From: Candidatus Adlerbacteria bacterium
Lineage (GTDB): Bacteria; Patescibacteriota; Minisyncoccia; Phycocordibacterales; SBAW01
Length of the DNA: 34,805 bases
Direction: 5' to 3'
Assembly: GCA_043734325.1 (NCBI GenBank)
Contig: JAYTFN010000089.1
Location: forward strand, 1-34,805
In this document: piece by piece, positions 4,130-15,285 of the stretch
Layout: each line of letters opens with the position of its first letter
Position numbering within the stretch: position 1 is the first letter of the stretch
The notes under the pieces: model-generated
What the model saw: only the letters and a program-made list of their open reading frames with translations
Told to the model about the DNA's origin: nothing
Database searches by the model: none
Position numbers and translations under genes: made by a program

Positions 4130-5659
4130 ATGCCAGAAAAAGAAATCATCCCGCGGGATCGCCCGCCTATTGTTACCGTTGTAGGGCACATCGACCATGG
4201 TAAGTCGACGCTTTTAGACTATATTCGAAAAAGTAATACTGCGGCAGGAGAAGCAGGCGGCATCACTCAACACCTGTCAGCATACGAAGCGGTGCATACT
4301 ACTCCGGCTGGTGTTCTGCGTCACATTACTTTTCTTGACACCCCCGGTCACGCAGCATTTCGTGCTATGCGATCGCGAGGACTAAACGCGGCAGACGTAG
4401 CCATTTTAGTTGTCTCAGCTGAAGACGGTGCAAAAACGCAAACAGTAGAAGCTATTACGTTAATACACGAAGCAAAAATTCCTTTTATTGTAGCTTTTAC
4501 AAAAATAGATAAGCCGAATGCAAACCTCGAGCGCGCGAAGCTGTCACTATTAGAACATAACGTCTTTGTTGAAGGGATGGGTGGTGACACACCGTTTGTC
4601 GCAGTCTCAAGTAAAACGGGCGAAGGTATTCCCGAGCTTCTTGACCTTATACTCCTAGCCGCAGAGCTCGAGGGACTTTCTGCTGACCCGTCTCTACCTG
4701 GCGTCGGTTTGATAATCGAAGCACACATTGACCAAAAACGCGGTAACACCGCAACGTTGATAGTGAAGGACGGTAGTGTCAGAAGTGGCCAATACATTGT
4801 CTGTGGAGAGAGTTTCGCACCAGTGCGAATTATGGAAAATTATATAGGCAAAAATATTAAAGAGGCGCTGCCGGGAAGTCCTATGCGTATCGTAGGCTTT
4901 ACCACCGCACCGGAAGTAGGAGCACAGTGGCGCGCAGTGGAGACAAAAAAAGACGCAGAGGCGCACGCAACAGAAGCACGAAAAAAACGTCTAAGCGAAA
5001 CGGTAGCGCCGACACGCAACACAGAGCCTGAAGAAGACGGCAAACTGCATGTGGTTATGCCATTAGTAATTAAAACTGATTTTTCAGGCACGGGCGACGC
5101 CGTGTTGCATGAGCTTTTAAAAATGCCGCAGGACCCACGCCTTGAAGTGCGCGTTGTGGGTCGCTCCGTGGGCCACATTAGCGAAAACGATGTAAAACTC
5201 GTCGGAGCATCCACGCCAGCAGGTATCATCGTCGGATTTAACGTCAAAGTCGAAAATGAAGCGCGTCAGCTTGCAGAGCGTTTGGGTGTCGAGGTCGCTA
5301 CTTTTGATATTATTTACAAACTCACCGAGTGGCTTCAAGAACAACTCACCAAACGTCATCCCCGCGAAAATATGGACGAAAAAACAGGTACCGCTAAAAT
5401 ACTAAAAGTATTTAGTAACCAGCAAGGTCGCGTTGTGTTGGGAGGACGATTAGAACAAGGAGTTTTTGAAGAAGGAAATCCGGTTAAGTTGATGCGCGGC
5501 GAACTAGAGCTTGGTCGCGGCGAAATACTTAGCCTTCAAATTCAAAAATCAGCCGTCAAAAAAGCGGAAGCTCCTTGTGAGTTTGGCACAATGATACGGA
5601 CATCGGCACAACCCGCACCCGGAGATTATATAGAAGCCTTTGAAGTAGTACTGAAATAA
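4130..5659 (+). CDS. infB: Translation initiation factor IF-2 (short form lacking the N-terminal domain)
   Basis: RPPIVTVVGHIDHGKSTLLD, EAGGITQH, FLDTPGHAAF, TKIDK, IIVGFNV, IIYKL; followed by rbfA. Confidence 0.97.
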   Translation: MPEKEIIPRDRPPIVTVVGHIDHGKSTLLDYIRKSNTAAGEAGGITQHLSAYEAVHTTPAGVLRHITFLDTPGHAAFRAMRSRGLNAADVAILVVSAEDGAKTQTVEAITLIHEAKIPFIVAFTKIDKPNANLERAKLSLLEHNVFVEGMGGDTPFVAVSSKTGEGIPELLDLILLAAELEGLSADPSLPGVGLIIEAHIDQKRGNTATLIVKDGSVRSGQYIVCGESFAPVRIMENYIGKNIKEALPGSPMRIVGFTTAPEVGAQWRAVETKKDAEAHATEARKKRLSETVAPTRNTEPEEDGKLHVVMPLVIKTDFSGTGDAVLHELLKMPQDPRLEVRVVGRSVGHISENDVKLVGASTPAGIIVGFNVKVENEARQLAERLGVEVATFDIIYKLTEWLQEQLTKRHPRENMDEKTGTAKILKVFSNQQGRVVLGGRLEQGVFEEGNPVKLMRGELELGRGEILSLQIQKSAVKKAEAPCEFGTMIRTSAQPAPGDYIEAFEVVLK

Positions 5660-6245: not shown

Positions 6246-7112
6246 ATGTTCAAAAATGAACACATGTTTATTACTTCCCTTCCGACAGAGTTTCATCCAC
6301 GGCAAGAATGGCCCGAGTACGCGGCACACCGCGATCTGCCGAGCTTTTTTCGACCAACGGTAGTTGGGACGCACCCACGGGGTATGCGACGTGGTGTATG
6401 GCCGCTCATTATCGAAGAGTACGTCAGCAACACCGAACCAATTGATTTCACCTCCGACTCTAACGCTCCAAATCGTATCATTGCATGGCGACGGGTGACC
6501 CGAAAAGACACCCCGCCCGGTTGGCACGCACTATCAAAAAAACCGTCGGCACTTGAAGGTTTTTTTGATCTTTTTCAATTTCCCGACTATGCGGCCCAGT
6601 GGATAAAAGTTGCGCGGTACGACCGACACCAGTGGCACAGCAACTACAGCACGAGGTACACTATCGAAAAGATAACGTGGAGCGAATATGCACACACATT
6701 TAAACACAGCACTGTCGGCAAAAAACTTGGCTTACTCATGGTTCGTTTGATGGAAAGAAAATGGAAGTCAGACCCCGAGCACATCATTTTTTGGGGCGCG
6801 CGCGAAAAGTCTACAGGCGAAGTTGTGGCGTGCATTGGTGTCATCAACTCTCCCAATTACCAGGCATCATATTATGCAACCGGGTGCATGCACTCAACAC
6901 AAGCCTCTACTCCGGTAATGGTGGGGCTTATAGACCACTGGTTTAAAACTTCGCAATCGCACCAAATTCGCTTTTTACATTTTGGATCATTTTGGATTCC
7001 GGGAGAGCCTAAGGCATGGAAGGGTTTCTCAACCTTTAAAATGAAATTTAAACCGCAACTTATTTTATATCCTCCGACGCTGGTACGACTCAAGTGTGGT
7101 ACATTTTTTTAG
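6246..7112 (+). CDS. Hypothetical protein, possibly GNAT/FemABX-like acyltransferase fold
   Basis: 288 aa ORF; C-terminal ASYYATG..LIDHWF..RFLHFG..WKGFSTFKMKF resembles the C-terminus of FemABX/GNAT-like proteins. Weak call. Confidence 0.45.
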   Translation: MFKNEHMFITSLPTEFHPRQEWPEYAAHRDLPSFFRPTVVGTHPRGMRRGVWPLIIEEYVSNTEPIDFTSDSNAPNRIIAWRRVTRKDTPPGWHALSKKPSALEGFFDLFQFPDYAAQWIKVARYDRHQWHSNYSTRYTIEKITWSEYAHTFKHSTVGKKLGLLMVRLMERKWKSDPEHIIFWGAREKSTGEVVACIGVINSPNYQASYYATGCMHSTQASTPVMVGLIDHWFKTSQSHQIRFLHFGSFWIPGEPKAWKGFSTFKMKFKPQLILYPPTLVRLKCGTFF

Positions 7113-7114
7113 GT

Positions 7115-7744
7115 ATGCACTGGATATTTGAAAGAAAAAATTTATTGTCCAGCAAAAATGGGCCCATTATGCTCGAGAAGTTTTTTGGTCGTCTGATGGT
7201 GCGGGCGGGCGGCGTTCAGCAAACCGGAGTGGAGCTGAACGCCATATGGCGTTATTCGTTTAAAAAGATACGGCAGTCGGTAGTCCTAAAACCGAGCGTG
7301 CTCATGCTAGGCCTGGGCGCTGGTGGAGCCCTCAAAGACCTCTACACCCTCTTTCCCGGATCAAGCATTACTACAGTCGAATACGACCCTATAATGGTTC
7401 ACCTAGCGCTAGAACTCCAGCTGTACAAACCTTACCCGTTGCCAAAAATAATTGAAGGCGACGCAGGTGACATACTTCCAACCCTATCTGAGAATTTCGA
7501 CCTCATTGTCATCGACCTATTTCAGGGCTCAAAGGTCTCATCGCTTATATCGCAAGAAAGTTTTTTAACGAATCTCAAAAAAATCTTGTCACCTCGAGGC
7601 ATTATTTTGATAAACGTATTCCGCGAACCGCAGTGCCTAGAAGCGGCACGTCGCATCTTTACACACTCGTCTCATTGGAAATACACAAGCAACACCATCG
7701 GTGCTTTTTGGGATTATTCGCCTTTGACCGAACACAGTTGTTAG
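7115..7744 (+). CDS. Class I SAM-dependent methyltransferase, spermidine-synthase-like
   Basis: VLMLGLGAGG (motif I), TTVEYDP, IIEGDA, FDLIVIDLF, LSPRGIILINV. Confidence 0.8.
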   Translation: MHWIFERKNLLSSKNGPIMLEKFFGRLMVRAGGVQQTGVELNAIWRYSFKKIRQSVVLKPSVLMLGLGAGGALKDLYTLFPGSSITTVEYDPIMVHLALELQLYKPYPLPKIIEGDAGDILPTLSENFDLIVIDLFQGSKVSSLISQESFLTNLKKILSPRGIILINVFREPQCLEAARRIFTHSSHWKYTSNTIGAFWDYSPLTEHSC

Positions 7745-7774
7745 AGTATGAATTTTCTAGTACTGTTTATTTAT

Positions 7775-7847
7775 CCGCCCATAGCTCAGTTGGTAGAGCA
7801 GCTCCCTCTTAAGGAGACTGTCCCAGGTTCGAGCCCTGGTGGGCGGA
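7775..7847 (+). tRNA. tRNA-Lys (CTT)
   Basis: Acceptor CCGCCCA/TGGGCGG-A; D arm GCTC-AGTTGGTA-GAGC; anticodon loop CTCTTAA; T arm CCAGG-TTCGAGC-CCTGG; CCA not encoded. Confidence 0.95.
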
Positions 7848-7977
7848 CAAAAGACATAACAATCCCACCTGCGTGGGATTTTGTGCTTTTGTCCGAGACG
7901 GAGCGATGTTTTGCATTTGCAAAATCGCGAGTCGGGGTCGCGAGCATATTTTGCGACGGCAAAATGTGACTTGTGAC
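7844..7977 (+). repeat. tRNA-Lys-associated structured trailer (partial copy of element family)
   Basis: CGGACAAAAG 7844-7853 pairs with CTTTTGTCCG 7886-7895; core 7896-7977 AGACGGAGC..GCGAGTCGGGGTCGCGA..GTGAC shared with 8342-8427. Confidence 0.75.
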
Positions 7978-8182
7978 GACTAATAAAAACAGCACCTGCG
8001 TAGTAGGGTCACGACCCTTATAGCGGACCTGTCCGGCAGCTTCAACGACTCGAGTTACATAGCACCTTTGGACTTTGTCGAAGGAACTCTTTCGCTTACC
8101 GTAACAAGTGAACACAGTTTTGACAACAAGACCATAGTCTACTACGTGACGGGAAAATAAATTCAGCGTACAATCGGTCTAT

Positions 8183-8264
8183 GCCCTCGTGGCGGAATTG
8201 GTATACGCGCGTGGCTTAGGACCACGTTCCGAAAGGATTAGAGGTTCAAGTCCTCTCGGGGGCA
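8183..8264 (+). tRNA. tRNA-Leu (TAG)
   Basis: Acceptor GCCCTCG/CGGGGGC-A; anticodon arm CGTGG-CTTAGGA-CCACG; variable arm TCC-GAAA-GGA; T arm AGAGG-TTCAAGT-CCTCT. Confidence 0.95.
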
Positions 8265-8571
8265 CAAGGAGGAAGCCGGCATTTGCCGGTTTTTTCGTGC
8301 CCACGAAGTACAGTGCCTGCGCACTGTGCGGAGGACTTGAAAGACGGAGCAATGTTTCGTTAGCAAACGAAACTGCGAGTCGGGGTCGCGAAAAAACGCT
8401 TGCGTCGGCAAGTGCTTTATTCGTGACCAAGTCCTCTCGGGGGCACCGAAAGAAAAGTTGGCTTTGTGCCAACTTTTTCTTTTGGTCCAAGGACTTGAAA
8501 GCCGGAAGGAGCGAAGGCGACTGAGGCGGGGTCGCGCAAATTTTCAGCAGAAAATTATGTGTGACCAAGTC
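8265..8571 (+). repeat. Two tandem tRNA-Leu-associated structured units containing inverted and direct copies of the tRNA 3' end
   Basis: 19-bp direct repeat CAAGTCCTCTCGGGGGCAC at 8247-8265 and 8428-8446; inverted T-arm copies GAGGACTTGAA 8331-8341 and AGGACTTGAA 8490-8499; shared core CGGGGTCGCG..GTGACCAAGTC. Confidence 0.85.
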
Positions 8572-8580
8572 TAATAATTT

Positions 8581-8853
8581 TTATGGCAAAAGTCCGTTTA
8601 CCGTTTCTGAGATAATACTCAATATCTTCACTGTTGAGACAATTATAAAAAGTCCAACCAAGCCCCACAACATATGCTGCTTTCCGTCACTAGTGGATTC
8701 GCCTCCACGGAGCTTCCACAAATACTGCACTATTCCCCATACGAACACTAATACCGCCAGTGAGGCAAGGAGTATAAGAATTGGATTGACTATGTAGGCT
8801 ATGAGCCGACTAAGGATAGAGCAGGTGTCTGCATCAGCAACACAACGTGGCAT
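8581..8853 (-). CDS. TrbC/VirB2-like pilin-family small membrane protein
   Basis: Two hydrophobic helices, LVFVWGIVQYL..GKQHMLWGLVGLFIIVS; part of a tandem array. Confidence 0.65.
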   Translation of the reverse strand: MPRCVADADTCSILSRLIAYIVNPILILLASLAVLVFVWGIVQYLWKLRGGESTSDGKQHMLWGLVGLFIIVSTVKILSIISETVNGLLP

Positions 8854-8879
8854 AGTATGAAAATGCTAGAGAGTAAGGA

Positions 8880-9230
8880 CTAGTTCGTTGGGAAGTGTGG
8901 AGCATTAACCGTGTTTGGCTGGTTCGTTCCGTTAAGAAGAGCACTTTGTATAAGACGAATGATGCCCCATATGGAAACCATCACAAAGAGCGCAATGATA
9001 CCATTTGCCATTATTTTTTGACCTATTCCTTTTTCAGCGTTATGGATGTATTTTATGAGACCGTAAAAGAACACAAGCATCGCTACACCTATCGAAATAG
9101 GAATAAGAAGTGCAATGATATTAGCGATAGAAACTATAAACTGCTGTATTGGCGCCAGCGTACCATATTGAGCTCCGGCGAAAAGCGGAAGTGCGAGTAG
9201 AACTGAGGAGAAGAGTGCTAATTTTTTCAT
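8880..9230 (-). CDS. TrbC/VirB2-like pilin-family protein with signal peptide
   Basis: Signal peptide MKKLALFSSVLLALPLFAGA; LVFFYGLIKYI..GQKIMANGIIALFVMVSIWG. Confidence 0.65.
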   Translation of the reverse strand: MKKLALFSSVLLALPLFAGAQYGTLAPIQQFIVSIANIIALLIPISIGVAMLVFFYGLIKYIHNAEKGIGQKIMANGIIALFVMVSIWGIIRLIQSALLNGTNQPNTVNAPHFPTN

Positions 9231-9353
9231 ACGAAGTTTATTGTTGCTCGATATCGTTTAAATGTATACCTGTTCAGTCTAACAGGATACCGTAGCGTCA
9301 CAATAGCCTTATGTGGATAGCACGTAGTACGCACCACGGGGTATATGCAAAAA

Positions 9354-9710
9354 TTATGCCGATTGAATAAACAAGGGAATATTTTTATCACCTGTATCAT
9401 TTATAGCAGGGTTAGGTTTAGGGTTAGTACAGTTTGCGTTTCCTAAAAAACTTATACACATTAACTTTAAAATACCTCCAAGCGAAAAAATTATAAAAAG
9501 TGATATAAGCCCCCACACAATAAGCTGCCTCCCTTCCTGCTGACCCTTAGGACCTGAGCTATTGCTTATATACCTGACTAATCCCCAAAAGAAAATAAGT
9601 ATGGCTATGCCCGATAATAGCCACACGAGGGAGTTCATAACTTCGACGATACCGAAGATTATAGAGCTAAACGTAGAATGGGTAGTGCCAAACATATTAA
9701 TTGCACGCAC
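9354..9710 (-). CDS. TrbC/VirB2-like pilin-family protein
   Basis: LIFFWGLVRYI..EGRQLIVWGLISLFIIFSLGG, same pattern as neighbours. Confidence 0.65.
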   Translation of the reverse strand: MRAINMFGTTHSTFSSIIFGIVEVMNSLVWLLSGIAILIFFWGLVRYISNSSGPKGQQEGRQLIVWGLISLFIIFSLGGILKLMCISFLGNANCTNPKPNPAINDTGDKNIPLFIQSA

Positions 9711-12804: not shown

Positions 12805-15285
12805 TTACAAACACACGAAGCTTGCGATTTGGTCGCCGTCGCGGAGTTTCATTATTCGGACGCCTTGTGTGCCTCGGGACAGCGATGGGATTTCGGAGAG
12901 GTCGGTGCGAATAACTTGTCCTTTTTTGGATACAACAACTATTTCAGGAGAAATCTCAGCATCTTTTGATACAAGGCGTGCGGCGATAAGCGGGCCGGTT
13001 TTTGGTGTTACCTTAACTGTTTTAATGCCGGAGCCGCCACGATTTTGTGTTTTATATTCATCAACGGGAGTTGTTTTACCATATCCATTTCGCGATACGA
13101 CGAGCACTTCAGAGGTTGTGTCGCCCTTACGCAGTACATCTGCACCAACAATTATGTCACTTCCTGAAAGCTTCATGGCACGAACCCCGCCGGCCGTGCG
13201 TCCCATAGCGCGAATATCGCTTTCTTTAAATCGAATGGACTGTCCGGTCGAGGATGCAAGTAGAATTTCGTCACCCGGGTCAACAAATAGTGCGGAAATA
13301 AGCTCGTCACCTTTGTCCAAACGCATCGCAATGAGCCCACTGCGGCGCACATCGTGGAAGGCGGTTGCATCTACTTTTTTTGCAACTCCTTTTTTGGTAA
13401 TCATATACAAGGAACGCTGGCCTTCCTTTTCAACTTTACGCATAGGAAGGACGGACGAAATTTTTTCGCTATCCGAAATTGAAAGGAAATTCACCACAGC
13501 TTTACCTTTGGTTGATCGCTTCCCTTCAGGTAATTCGTACATTTTTATTTGATACGCTTTACCTAAGTCAGAGAAAAAGAGTAAGTCAGAATGGCTTGAA
13601 GTGGTTAGGAATGTCGTAACAAAGTCTTCTTCCTTTGTGTTGAGGTCGATAACACCCACACCACCGCGCTTCTGGTGCTTGTACTCCTCGGGGTTGGTGC
13701 GCTTTACATAACCACCGGACGTAAGCACTAACACCTGCTCTTCGTCGGGTACGAGGTCTTCGACATTGATTATTCCTGCAGCACCCTTCAATATTTTGGT
13801 CTCGCGGTCATCACCATACTTTTTAACGATGTCGGCAATTTCGGTCTTGATAACCAAAAGCATTTTTTTATCAGACTTGAGTAGATCTTCCAGTTCGGCT
13901 ATGAGTGTTTGTATTTCCGCAAGCTCGTCTTCGACTTTTTGACGCTCGAGGTTGGCAAGCTTCTGGAGTCGCATCTCGAGGATTGCGTTGGCTTGAATTT
14001 CGCTAAACTTGAACTTCTTCATCAAGTTGACGCGCGCATCTGCAACGTCTTTGGAGGCGCGGATGGTTTTAATTACTTCGTCTATATGGTCAAGCGCTTT
14101 CTTGAGGCCAATGAGGATATGTTCGCGCTCCCGTGCCCGCGTAAGATCGAACTGGGTCCTACGGCGTACAACATCGCGGCGGTGTTTGATGAACTCTTGC
14201 AAAATACTCTTGAGCGACATCGTCTGAGGAATGCCTTCAACAAGCATGACCATGTTGAAATGGAACGTGTCTTCAAGCGACGTGTGTTTATATAAAAAGT
14301 TAAGTACTTTTTGCGGTTGTGCGCCTTGTTTCAACTCCACCACAACGCGAATATCTTTTGTCGATTCGTCGCGTAGCCCGCGTATACCGTCTATTTTCTT
14401 ATCGCGCACCAAATCGGCGATACGCACTATCATGTCGGATTTGTTTACACGATATGGGATAGAGGTAATGATAATTTGAAAATCACCCTTCTTACCTTCA
14501 ACAATTTCGGCATTACCACGCACCACAACGCCGCCACGACCGGTGGTGTAGGCATGTAAAAGATCTTTTCGGTTATACGCTACGGCTCCTGTTGGAAAGT
14601 CCGGACCCGAGACAAATTCCATTAAATCTTCAACCGTTGCCTCCGGATTGTCTATAAGATGCACCAAGGCACCGGTCACTTCTCTAAGGTTGTGCGGCGG
14701 GATGTTCGTTGCCATTCCAACGGCAATACCGAGTGTACCGTTGAGTAAAATGTTTGGAAGCATTGCCGGCAACACCTCAGGCTCCTTTAAAGAGCCGTCG
14801 TAGTTTGAGCGCCAGTTAACGGTGTCCTTATCGAGGTCGCGCAAAAGTTCTTCAGCGACACGCGACATTTTTGCTTCGGTGTATCGCATAGCTGCTGCTG
14901 AGTCGCCGTCAATTGAACCAAAGTTACCTTGGCCTAAAATAAGCGGGTACCGCATCGCAAAGGTTTGCGCCATTTTAACCATGGCGTCATACACGGACGA
15001 GTCGCCGTGCGGGTGGTACTTACCCAGCACCTCTCCTACCACGGTTGCTGATTTTCGAAAACGCGAGCCGGGAGTGAGCCCCATGCGAAACATGGCGTAC
15101 AAAATACGTCGGTGTACCGGCTTTAAACCGTCGCGCACGTCAGGAAGTGCGCGCGAGGTAATAACCGACATGGCATAGTCGAGGTACGAGTCGCGCATCT
15201 CGCTGGAAATGTTGCGGCCTATAACATTCTGGTGCACTACCGCAACCTCAGTACTATCCTTTTTGTTTTTATCTTTATCTGCCAT
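12805..15285 (-). CDS. gyrA: DNA gyrase subunit A
   Basis: [31 protein letters not shown] (catalytic Tyr), GyrA-box QKRGGVG, C-terminal beta-pinwheel repeats. Confidence 0.97.

Follow-up and report, generated by a model that had tools for sequence, protein, structure and literature searches.

Three small folded elements stand behind two tRNA genes in a 34,805-nt stretch of DNA from a Candidatus Adlerbacteria bacterium (contig JAYTFN010000089.1 of GenBank assembly GCA_043734325.1, positions 1 to 34,805 of the forward strand; hereafter, the window). Judged from sequence, they belong to a widespread, uncatalogued family of small folded elements behind the tRNA genes of Patescibacteria, and in design they resemble the RtT repeats of Escherichia coli. 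Each element has a two-hairpin core at the apex of a gene-less module of 110–190 nt that lies on the strand of its tRNA. An initial annotation had pointed out three such cores, at 7896–7977, 8342–8427 and 8500–8571, and had taken them for a selected structure dispersed among tRNA loci; all three are present in the sequence, and the interpretation is supported by the data described below. What had been overlooked is that the cores are the apex of larger modules closed by the tRNA's own 3' end, that the family is large, and that RtT shares its design.

Anatomy of the units

The modules are built of a terminator-type hairpin, a 5' arm that is antisense to the 3' region of the tRNA, the two-hairpin core and, after GTGAC, a direct copy of the tRNA region (coordinates are given in Table 1). 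The arms are of two types: a T-loop type, which reads from T-loop position 54 (units 2 and 3), and a 3'-end type, which covers the last acceptor bases and the trailer (unit 1). Units 2 and 3 are arranged in tandem behind a single tRNA-Leu. Cores 1 and 2 share AGACGGAGC, hairpin 1, GCGAGTCGGGGTCGCGA, hairpin 2 and GTGAC, and their hairpin arms differ in sequence with complementarity kept, while core 3 retains CGGGGTCGCG, an AATTTTC/GAAAATT hairpin and GTGACC. Exact copies of the decamer CGGGGTCGCG are found at 7933, 8381 and 8527 and nowhere else in the window; when one mismatch is allowed there are seven matches, against 1.14 expected, a number reached in none of 100 shuffles.

Folding of each core in isolation returned the two hairpins (z = −6.0, −4.5 and −4.5 for cores 1–3), and minimum free energy (MFE) folds gave the proposed architecture exactly in units 1, 2 and 3 (z = −9.8, −7.4 and −5.5 for the whole units), with RNAfold returning a multi-branched fold of −75.5 kcal/mol for unit 2 (8299–8446). 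In the MFE fold of unit 1, the arm at 7886–7895 pairs with the end and trailer of tRNA-Lys at 7844–7853, forming a long hairpin with a terminator-like tip, and the same arm can alternatively pair with the GAC and A-rich flank behind the core. The hairpin with a CTGC loop found in unit 1 reappears in relatives, and the spacer hairpin of unit 2 covaries with it, the CTGC loop being kept. No open reading frames (ORFs) beyond chance frames were found within the units, 162 nt separate the direct repeats of unit 2, and a promoter scan of the region found no promoter-like sites between the tRNAs and the units.

Fold and covariation of the core

The core was studied in two sets of sequences. One, A2, is an alignment of 21 gap-free, 63-nt cores from other genomes and was not fitted to any model. 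From it was built a covariance model, R1, and the matches aligned to R1 (120 matches from 100 sources, 118 of them distinct) make up the other set, which is model-fitted and hence biased towards structure. A MAFFT alignment of both size classes of core (A1) misplaced the 5' anchor and was set aside. In A2, hairpin 1 (H1) consists of a 3-bp helix, GNC/GN'C, whose middle pair covaries, around an internal loop and a 4-bp hairpin, the internal loop having GGA on its 5' side and GA on its 3' side, that is, tandem G-A pairs and one bulged G. A GGG linker leads to hairpin 2 (H2), a long hairpin with the conserved GUCGCG/YGUGAC, including an invariant G-U, at its base, one bulged A, and a loop that is usually AGCA. 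This refines the earlier description of the core in two respects: H2 starts inside the conserved GTCGCG and is closed by YGTGAC, and hairpin 1 is surrounded by a 3-bp helix.

The covariation that had been claimed from the window alone proved real and strong on both larger sets. In A2, 99.6% of the 462 cells were paired and both-side changes were present in 14 of the 22 pairs, values reached in 0 of 500 shuffles, and sliding the partners by 1–3 columns left only 29–51% pairing. Among the 118 distinct model-aligned cores, 98.2% of cells were paired and compensatory changes occurred in 19 of the 22 pairs (likewise reached in 0 of 500 shuffles), with both-side changes in 579 cells against 144 in shuffles, and with pairing falling to 29–45% when the partners were slid. 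One pair of the core is G-U in 116 of the 118 sequences and another alternates between G-U (74) and G-C (34), so the fold belongs to the tRNA-sense strand only. The cores fall into two size classes, of 61–66 nt (44 copies) and 78–90 nt (33 copies) in the pattern-defined set described in the next section; cores 1 and 2 are of the long class and core 3 is of the short class.

The initial annotation did not recognise the structure as a known family, and none was found: apart from tRNAs and chance-level matches, there were no matches to Rfam 15 families at E ≤ 10, the non-tRNA matches returned by cmscan for 7000–9500 being far below their gathering scores and overlapping either the tRNAs or unrelated sequence. 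Self-cleaving ribozymes of the known kinds (hammerhead, twister, pistol, hatchet and those like that of hepatitis delta virus) are likewise excluded by the same scan of 7000–9500, which returned none at E ≤ 10.

Linkage to tRNA genes

A strict sequence pattern (GGAG, gap, GGGGTCGCG, gap, GTGAC) gave 115 matches, spread over 52 of the 101 genomes scanned from the same order, compared with six for a reversed-pattern control, and 102 cores were collected with their flanks. The dispersal among tRNA loci that had been proposed is borne out in this set, where 63 of the 102 cores have a same-strand tRNA ending no more than 150 nt upstream (72 of 102 within 300 nt), with 32 anticodon classes represented. 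The hosts of the family as a whole comprise at least 32 tRNA species and transfer-messenger RNA (tmRNA).

In T-loop-type units the copy lies at offset 0 after GTGAC and corresponds to tRNA position −19, and the arm starts 2 nt deeper in the tRNA, at −21; in 3'-end-type units the copy corresponds to about −3 and the arm to about −5. In 28 units of the T-loop type the arm is made up, in order, of a 5-nt stem part, the complement of positions 56–60, AA, and A. Its part against positions 56–60 is perfectly Watson-Crick in 17 of the 28, and at least four others show one or two G-A oppositions (GAG for TCG); for the stem part, 13 positions informative on a sense or antisense origin split 4, 3 and 6. 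The direct repeat usually ends at the tRNA end, running at least 30 nt into the terminator at two loci (L004 and L035), and at three loci (L012, L021 and L035) the arm is imperfect despite a perfect direct repeat. At locus L121, position 57 reads A in the copy against G in the tRNA, a difference that is matched by the base in the arm. The tRNA-Lys loci of the genus were fetched by their likeness to the window and are excluded from the unbiased counts; a unit resembling unit 1 was found in most of the genomes retrieved with the window as query, and in these units the arm (GTCC or GTGC) and the post-core flank (GAC or CAC) track the end of the tRNA (GGAC or GCAC). The compensation at L121 and the tracking in the tRNA-Lys units indicate that the closing helix evolves as a helix.

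Copies in the source genome and across the phylum

Searches with R1 recovered further copies both in the source genome and in other Patescibacteria. The source assembly (G000; 653,689 bases in 130 contigs, 80.6% complete) carries a solid further copy at C70:1025–1088, another at C90:227–307, downstream of tRNA-Val(TAC), with 19 nt from the end of that tRNA repeated exactly after it, and two adjacent, decayed cores at C94:480–682 (+), on a contig with no tRNA, the better of which reaches 19.7 bits with R1. Units accompany three (tRNA-Lys, tRNA-Leu and tRNA-Val) of the 29 tRNA genes that ARAGORN finds in this assembly.

Some further observations concern these contigs. The core on C70 sits in about 700 nt (C70:600–1300, L001) without a long ORF or Rfam match; compared with Rfam at permissive thresholds, the contig gave tRNAs and chance-level matches only. 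The core is preceded by a hairpin, GAGAAAGCG...GCTTTCGC, which is also seen in G019 (L020) and in the hybrid units of the relative G094 (see below). On C40, at about 4,860–5,060 (−), a CTGC-loop hairpin, GGGTAGGACTCGAAAG and an apparent core start are found upstream of a degraded RAYT-like ORF, and these may be a truncated unit.

Among 150 further genomes drawn evenly across the phylum, R1 had matches at E ≤ 1e-4 in five, three of which are outside the class. These remote members share the family's architecture; CCA is encoded in their tRNA genes, the copy spans C56 to CCA (21–22 nt, with 0–1 mismatch), and only the first 7–9 bases of the copy pair with the arm. A pattern scan of the whole collection returned at least 120 stretches; among the 80 loci listed, three are family members by R1, one each in a Patescibacteria group metagenome-assembled genome (MAG), a Candidatus Saccharibacteria MAG (L225) and one further bin, and the other 77 of the matches listed come from GC-rich genomes and are due to chance. 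A search of open-access papers and bioRxiv found no account of such elements in Patescibacteria.

Two kinds of outlying copy were also seen. G172 has, at L124, L129 and L132, a more distant relative of the core with the same H1 and upper H2, without GGGGTCGCG, whose long closing stems are unrelated to any tRNA and which is not tRNA-linked. Orthologous units without an upstream tRNA are present in G065 (L011, 1430–1600) and G094 (C7:599960–600120), and their arms (CCGGAGTAG... with ...CACTCCGG) seem derived from some other RNA gene or structured region.

Repeat behaviour

Copy number varies from 0 to 77 per genome. The highest number is that of G094, a complete relative of 0.8 Mb, counted as R1 matches at E ≤ 0.01, of which 73, on a 680-kb contig, were mapped. 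Within 150 nt downstream of the tRNA and tmRNA genes of this genome there are 23 units on the same strand and one on the opposite strand, where random placement would give 0.34, and 18 of the 43 tRNA and tmRNA genes have a unit behind them. The other copies are either two-unit hybrids or sub-families in which H1 and a shortened H2 lie inside 18–20 bp AT-rich inverted repeats of their own; the sub-families on C7 (L164–L197; e.g., 71686–71737, 181798–181846 and 13664–13720) lack GGGGTCGCG, and their inverted repeats covary between copies. Insertion at T-loop-like sites was considered as the origin of the nested copies and rejected, the junctions being inconsistent, and no target motif is claimed. 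The units of G094 show no strand bias with replichore. Of its 42 intergenic copies without a tRNA link, 34 are co-directional with the downstream gene.

When 72 cores were compared with their closest counterpart in another genome, both followed the same tRNA in 4 cases, where 2.1 would be expected by chance; of 88 cores, 18 had their nearest neighbour within their own genome, where chance would give 2.2. Both counts are noisy because the sequences are short. They suggest that the cores move or convert between loci rather than co-diverge with their tRNA.

A search was made for an enzyme that might accompany the repeat. No integrase, transposase or reverse transcriptase was found within ±1.5 kb of seven loci that have no nearby tRNA, the neighbours being housekeeping genes (aminoacyl-tRNA synthetases, SmpB, DnaJ, TsaD and IF3). 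The RVT_1 profile has no match in G000 and G094, the TnpB-type profile PF07282 has none in G000, G094, G199, G245, G050 and G010, and G000 has one tyrosine recombinase. Y1 transposase (Y1_Tnp) domains are present in 64 of the 101 genomes, and the pattern and Y1, counted by hand, show no association (both, 34; pattern only, 17; Y1 only, 29; neither, 20). There were no cores beside the three Y1_Tnp genes or the three reverse transcriptase genes inspected. Four Y1 (IS200/RAYT-like) ORFs are found in G000, at C109:122–814 (+), C40 about 4311–4862 (−), the C87:1–630 region (−) and C66:467–1288 (+). The one on C109 is flanked by a hairpin repeat, AAACGGTGCCTGTCCCCGTTT, inverted upstream and present twice downstream, and the copy on C40, which looks degraded, has the same repeat downstream; these genes and AAACGGTGCCTGTCCCCGTTT appear to form a separate REP/RAYT-type system.

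Features of the locus

The features of the two tRNA loci in the window are collected in Table 1.

Table 1. Features of the tRNA-Lys and tRNA-Leu loci and their three units (positions in the window)
Feature	Positions	Strand	Basis
tRNA-Lys(CTT), host of unit 1	7775–7848	+	ARAGORN; Rfam tRNA, 63.2 bits
T(1) of unit 1: last 4–5 bases of tRNA-Lys and A-rich trailer CGGACAAAAG; pairs with 5' arm	7844–7853	+	sequence; antisense at tRNA positions −5 to +5; MFE fold
Terminator-like hairpin with CTGC loop and T-rich tract; tip of the long T(1):arm hairpin	7861–7880	+	terminator scan, fold
Unit 1, 5' arm CTTTTGTCCG, antisense to tRNA-Lys end and trailer	7886–7895	+	sequence, antisense match
Core 1, long: H1 7897–7933, GGG 7934–7936, H2 7937–7977	7896–7977	+	R1 48.9 bits, E 7e-10; fold z −6.0
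Unit 1, post-core flank: GAC and A-rich run, degenerate direct copy of tRNA-Lys end and trailer	7978–7989	+	sequence
Promoter-like site upstream of tRNA-Leu	8146–8174	+	promoter scan
tRNA-Leu(TAG), host of units 2 and 3; its T(1) is 8247–8265	8183–8265	+	ARAGORN, Rfam
GC hairpin and T6, terminator-like, between tRNA-Leu and unit 2	8275–8295	+	read from sequence; unlisted by terminator scan
Unit 2, outer 5' arm GTGCCCACGA; pairs with the part of T(2) that comes from the acceptor 3' strand	8297–8306	+	fold, sequence
Spacer hairpin ACAGTGC-CTGC-GCACTGT between the arm segments of unit 2	8310–8327	+	fold
Unit 2, inner 5' arm GGAGGACTTG + AA + A, antisense to tRNA positions 54–65	8330–8342	+	arm register, fold
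Core 2, long: H1 8343–8381, GGG 8382–8384, H2 8385–8427	8343–8427	+	R1 44.2 bits, E 1e-8; fold
T(2): exact 19-nt direct repeat of tRNA-Leu, T-loop C56 to 3' end (= 8247–8265)	8428–8446	+	19/19, offset 0
Terminator-like hairpin and T tract after unit 2	8452–8484	+	terminator scan, fold
Unit 3, 5' arm GGACTTG + AAA	8491–8500	+	sequence, antisense match, fold
Core 3, short: H1 8501–8527, GGG 8528–8530, H2 8531–8565	8501–8565	+	R1 66.7 bits, E 1.4e-14, best match of source genome
T(3): CAAGTC, truncated copy of the tRNA-Leu T-loop start	8566–8571	+	sequence, fold

Comparison of 7000–9300 with contigs of the source samples gave no joints or variants that skip a unit. Contigs of the samples break or switch at 8523–8565, and a number of short contigs from other organisms align with core 3 in this part only; the short-form H2 is near letter-identical between organisms of the sample in this comparison. 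Elsewhere in the window, a CRISPR direct-repeat model is matched weakly, and by a single copy, at 7232–7268 (−) (24.1 bits against a gathering score of 39, E 0.034), probably by chance.

Comparison with RtT and other known elements

The closest design among known elements is that of RtT. At the tyrT-tyrV locus of E. coli K-12, there are six copies of the last 19 nt of tRNA-Tyr, two of them within the tRNAs and the other four terminating repeat units, and Rfam model RF00391 finds four RtT units there (133–138 bits). An E. coli unit runs from a 5' arm, GGGGAAGGAU+GAGAA, antisense to the T-stem 3' strand of tRNA-Tyr, through the core to the last 19 nt of the tRNA, including CCA. The closing helix of the RF00391 consensus pairs GGGGAAGG with CCUUCCC from the copied tail of the tRNA; the consensus has a GAUGAGAA junction after the arm and leaves the CCACCA tail unpaired, and the annotated 3' end of the rttR small RNA is exactly the CCA of the copied tail. 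Like RtT, the units of the Patescibacteria family lie directly behind a tRNA gene, on its strand, and can be tandem (as seen in the window for units 1–3, with 2 and 3 in tandem); they have a 5' arm antisense to the T-stem 3' strand, a core with internal hairpins, and a closing helix of arm and copy. The GAGAA junction, too, is shared by the family, and GAUGAGAA is seen, for example, in GGGATGAGAAAG of L122. Both end in a direct copy of the tRNA 3' end that is 19 nt long, which is exact in unit 2 and realised in part in unit 3 (6 nt) and unit 1 (3 nt and an A-rich run). They differ in the sequence and fold of the core, in where the copy starts (A58 in RtT; C56 or the last 3 bases in Patescibacteria), and in range, since RtT is known from behind the tRNA-Tyr of enterobacteria whereas the Patescibacteria family occurs behind at least 32 tRNA species and tmRNA, in up to 77 copies. 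The original accounts of RtT are reportedly those of Egan and Landy in 1978, Rossi et al. in 1981, and Bosl and Kersten in 1991. In a preprint (bioRxiv 10.1101/2024.07.17.603846), rtT RNA is described as having a part in the processing of the tyrT transcript and as a likely modulator of the stringent response, its mode of action being unknown; RF00391 is also named in the methods of another paper (PMC12540744).

Other systems share some of these properties. A survey published by Williams in 2002 is said to have given the T-loop and the 3' end as the classical sublocations of integrase sites in tRNA genes. Integrative elements that target tRNA and tmRNA genes by means of tyrosine integrases resemble the present units in having a direct repeat from the T-loop or 3' end, an intact tRNA upstream, use of tmRNA, and tandem copies. 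The units differ from them in having no integrase or any other gene within their 110–190 bp, and in their antisense arm and covarying core, which integrase sites lack. Repeats of the REP/REPIN type and those like miniature inverted-repeat transposable elements (Correia, RPE, BOX) are also short, gene-less, intergenic and hairpin-forming, with uneven copy numbers and sub-families or hybrids, as in G094. The Patescibacteria units have no fixed terminal inverted repeats or short target duplications, take their arms from the neighbouring tRNA, and have an orientation strictly tied to it; in the comparison with REP/REPIN, RAYT-type genes were found to carry another repeat and were not flanked by cores. 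Small RNAs of tRNA precursors (3' external transcribed spacers) would be similar in that the element would derive from the tRNA transcript and be released by tRNA processing; to our knowledge, they have no copied tRNA end, antisense arm or repeat-family behaviour.

Interpretation

The units are best read, tentatively and with a probability that we put at about 0.45, as an RtT-like tRNA-trailer RNA that also multiplies as a repeat. This reading starts from direct observations (the anatomy, the covariation, the linkage to tRNA genes, the range of copy number and the likeness of design to RtT), and from these we infer transcription, processing of the copied end, any cellular role the element may have, and its route to new tRNAs. 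Read-through from the tRNA promoter would yield the unit, whose arm and copy would pair and set H1 and H2 on a three-way junction, with the remainder of the copied tRNA tail protruding as a tRNA-like 3' end. The copied tail would present a second, identical site to the enzymes of tRNA 3' processing and so set the 3' end, and trimming there may, by analogy with E. coli RtT, release a stable small RNA. The family also has the habits of a repeat: it makes tandem arrays via the repeated tRNA ends, stands behind many different tRNAs and tmRNA, and in one genome has undergone a burst to 77 copies. That an RNA is involved is suggested by the strict co-orientation with tRNA, the G-U and G-A pairs, the compensation at L121, and the joint variation of arm, copy and tRNA end in the tRNA-Lys units.

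There are several points that weigh against this reading. A search for RNA runs that contain this DNA returned none. A terminator-like hairpin with a T tract stands between each tRNA and the core (7861–7880; 8275–8295), so that read-through may be rare, and because single-stranded DNA can likewise form G-T and G-A pairs, the strand-specific signal is no proof of RNA. With units on only 3 of the 29 tRNA genes of G000, they cannot serve a general need of tRNA maturation. RF00391 has no match in 7000–9500 at E ≤ 10 (its membership cut-off being 45 bits), and R1 has none on the E. coli locus, and with no cross-matching of the two models the likeness to RtT is one of design. Core and tRNA do not co-diverge (4 of 72 cases, 2.1 by chance), and the 0–77 copies, the decayed and hybrid copies, and the sub-families unlinked to tRNA look like a selfish repeat more than a tuned gene.

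These last features would be expected if the unit acts at the DNA level, as a miniature, non-autonomous integrative or transposable element that enters tRNA and tmRNA genes at the T-loop or 3' end and restores the tail, the direct repeat being attL/attR and a recombinase supplied in trans reading the folded strand. Such an element is possible, if rather unlikely. It would account for direct repeats that begin at C56 of the T-loop or at the third-last base and reach the tRNA end, or at L004 and L035 even the terminator, and for tmRNA as a host, the tandem units 2 and 3, the decayed, truncated and hybrid copies, the spread of copy number, and core lineages that do not follow tRNA identity and find an excess of neighbours in their own genome. 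The enzyme is harder to place: none of the types sought lies near the seven tRNA-less loci, the 110–190 bp units hold no ORF and there is no integrase gene or cargo between the repeats, RVT_1 and TnpB are without matches in G000 and G094, and G000 has a single tyrosine recombinase. Y1 genes are common yet unassociated with the pattern and unflanked by cores, those of G000 carrying a different repeat, and the absence of a replichore strand bias in G094 is unlike single-strand transposons. The imperfect arms beside perfect direct repeats at L012, L021 and L035 argue against an arm copied from the target at insertion and fit arms in which only the half facing the widely shared T-loop needs to match. 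We also know of no use that an integrase would have for a covarying two-hairpin core. A bolder conjecture, which we regard as unlikely, is that what moves is the two-hairpin core itself, as part of a protein-less element of a new kind that settles downstream of tRNA and tmRNA genes and acquires on its two sides an inverted and a direct copy of the RNA gene it has joined; a generic, G-A-forming arm (GAGAA) would let it dock on the universal T-loop, the core could be catalytic or could recruit a host tRNA enzyme, and RtT would be one stranded member of a wider class.

The pairing seen in the MFE fold of unit 1, where 7886–7895 is paired with 7844–7853 and could instead pair with the GAC and A-rich flank after the core, raises the further idea of a cis-acting switch on the host tRNA, in which the arm would choose between the tRNA end and trailer, so lengthening the terminator hairpin and invading the acceptor stem, and the downstream copy, so closing the core junction, and would thereby tune termination or 3' maturation. 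An arm that reaches 2 nt deeper into the tRNA than the copy at both site types, and a tRNA-Lys unit kept across the genus in which arm, copy and tRNA end change together, would suit a switch. We nevertheless hold it to be improbable. A T-loop-type arm could pair with the real tRNA only if the T-arm came unfolded, some units are tandem or stand at a great distance from tRNA genes, most tRNAs have no unit and different genomes have them behind different tRNAs, and nothing observed suggests a ligand or partner. Least probable, and close to refuted, is a guide RNA of an RNA-guided nuclease or transposase, for which the core would be the scaffold and the 19–22 nt tRNA copy a 3' guide, as in RNAs of the TnpB/Cas12 type. 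The order of scaffold and guide-sized 3' segment identical to a genomic target, and the many copies per genome, are what brings it to mind; it is opposed by the lack of a TnpB-type match in G000 and five carrier genomes, of a large ORF beside the units, and of a match to any Rfam guide-RNA family, and by the predicted folds, in which the supposed guide would be largely paired with the unit's own 5' arm.

Significance

Ultra-small bacteria shed useless DNA, and it is in such bacteria that a strongly covarying element with a closing stem made from a tRNA tail has been kept, and even multiplied to 77 copies. Annotation pipelines should model the family, whose members R1 finds cleanly, since under either an RNA or a mobile-element reading it would account for many of the 'integration scars' that tRNA genes of these genomes seem to bear. 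If the units are a mobile element, it is one that spreads with neither a gene of its own nor any known enzyme, and does so where the genome is most conserved. If they are RNA, they would represent a class of tRNA-linked small RNA that is both new and widespread, and may offer a fresh route to the decades-old question of what RtT does.

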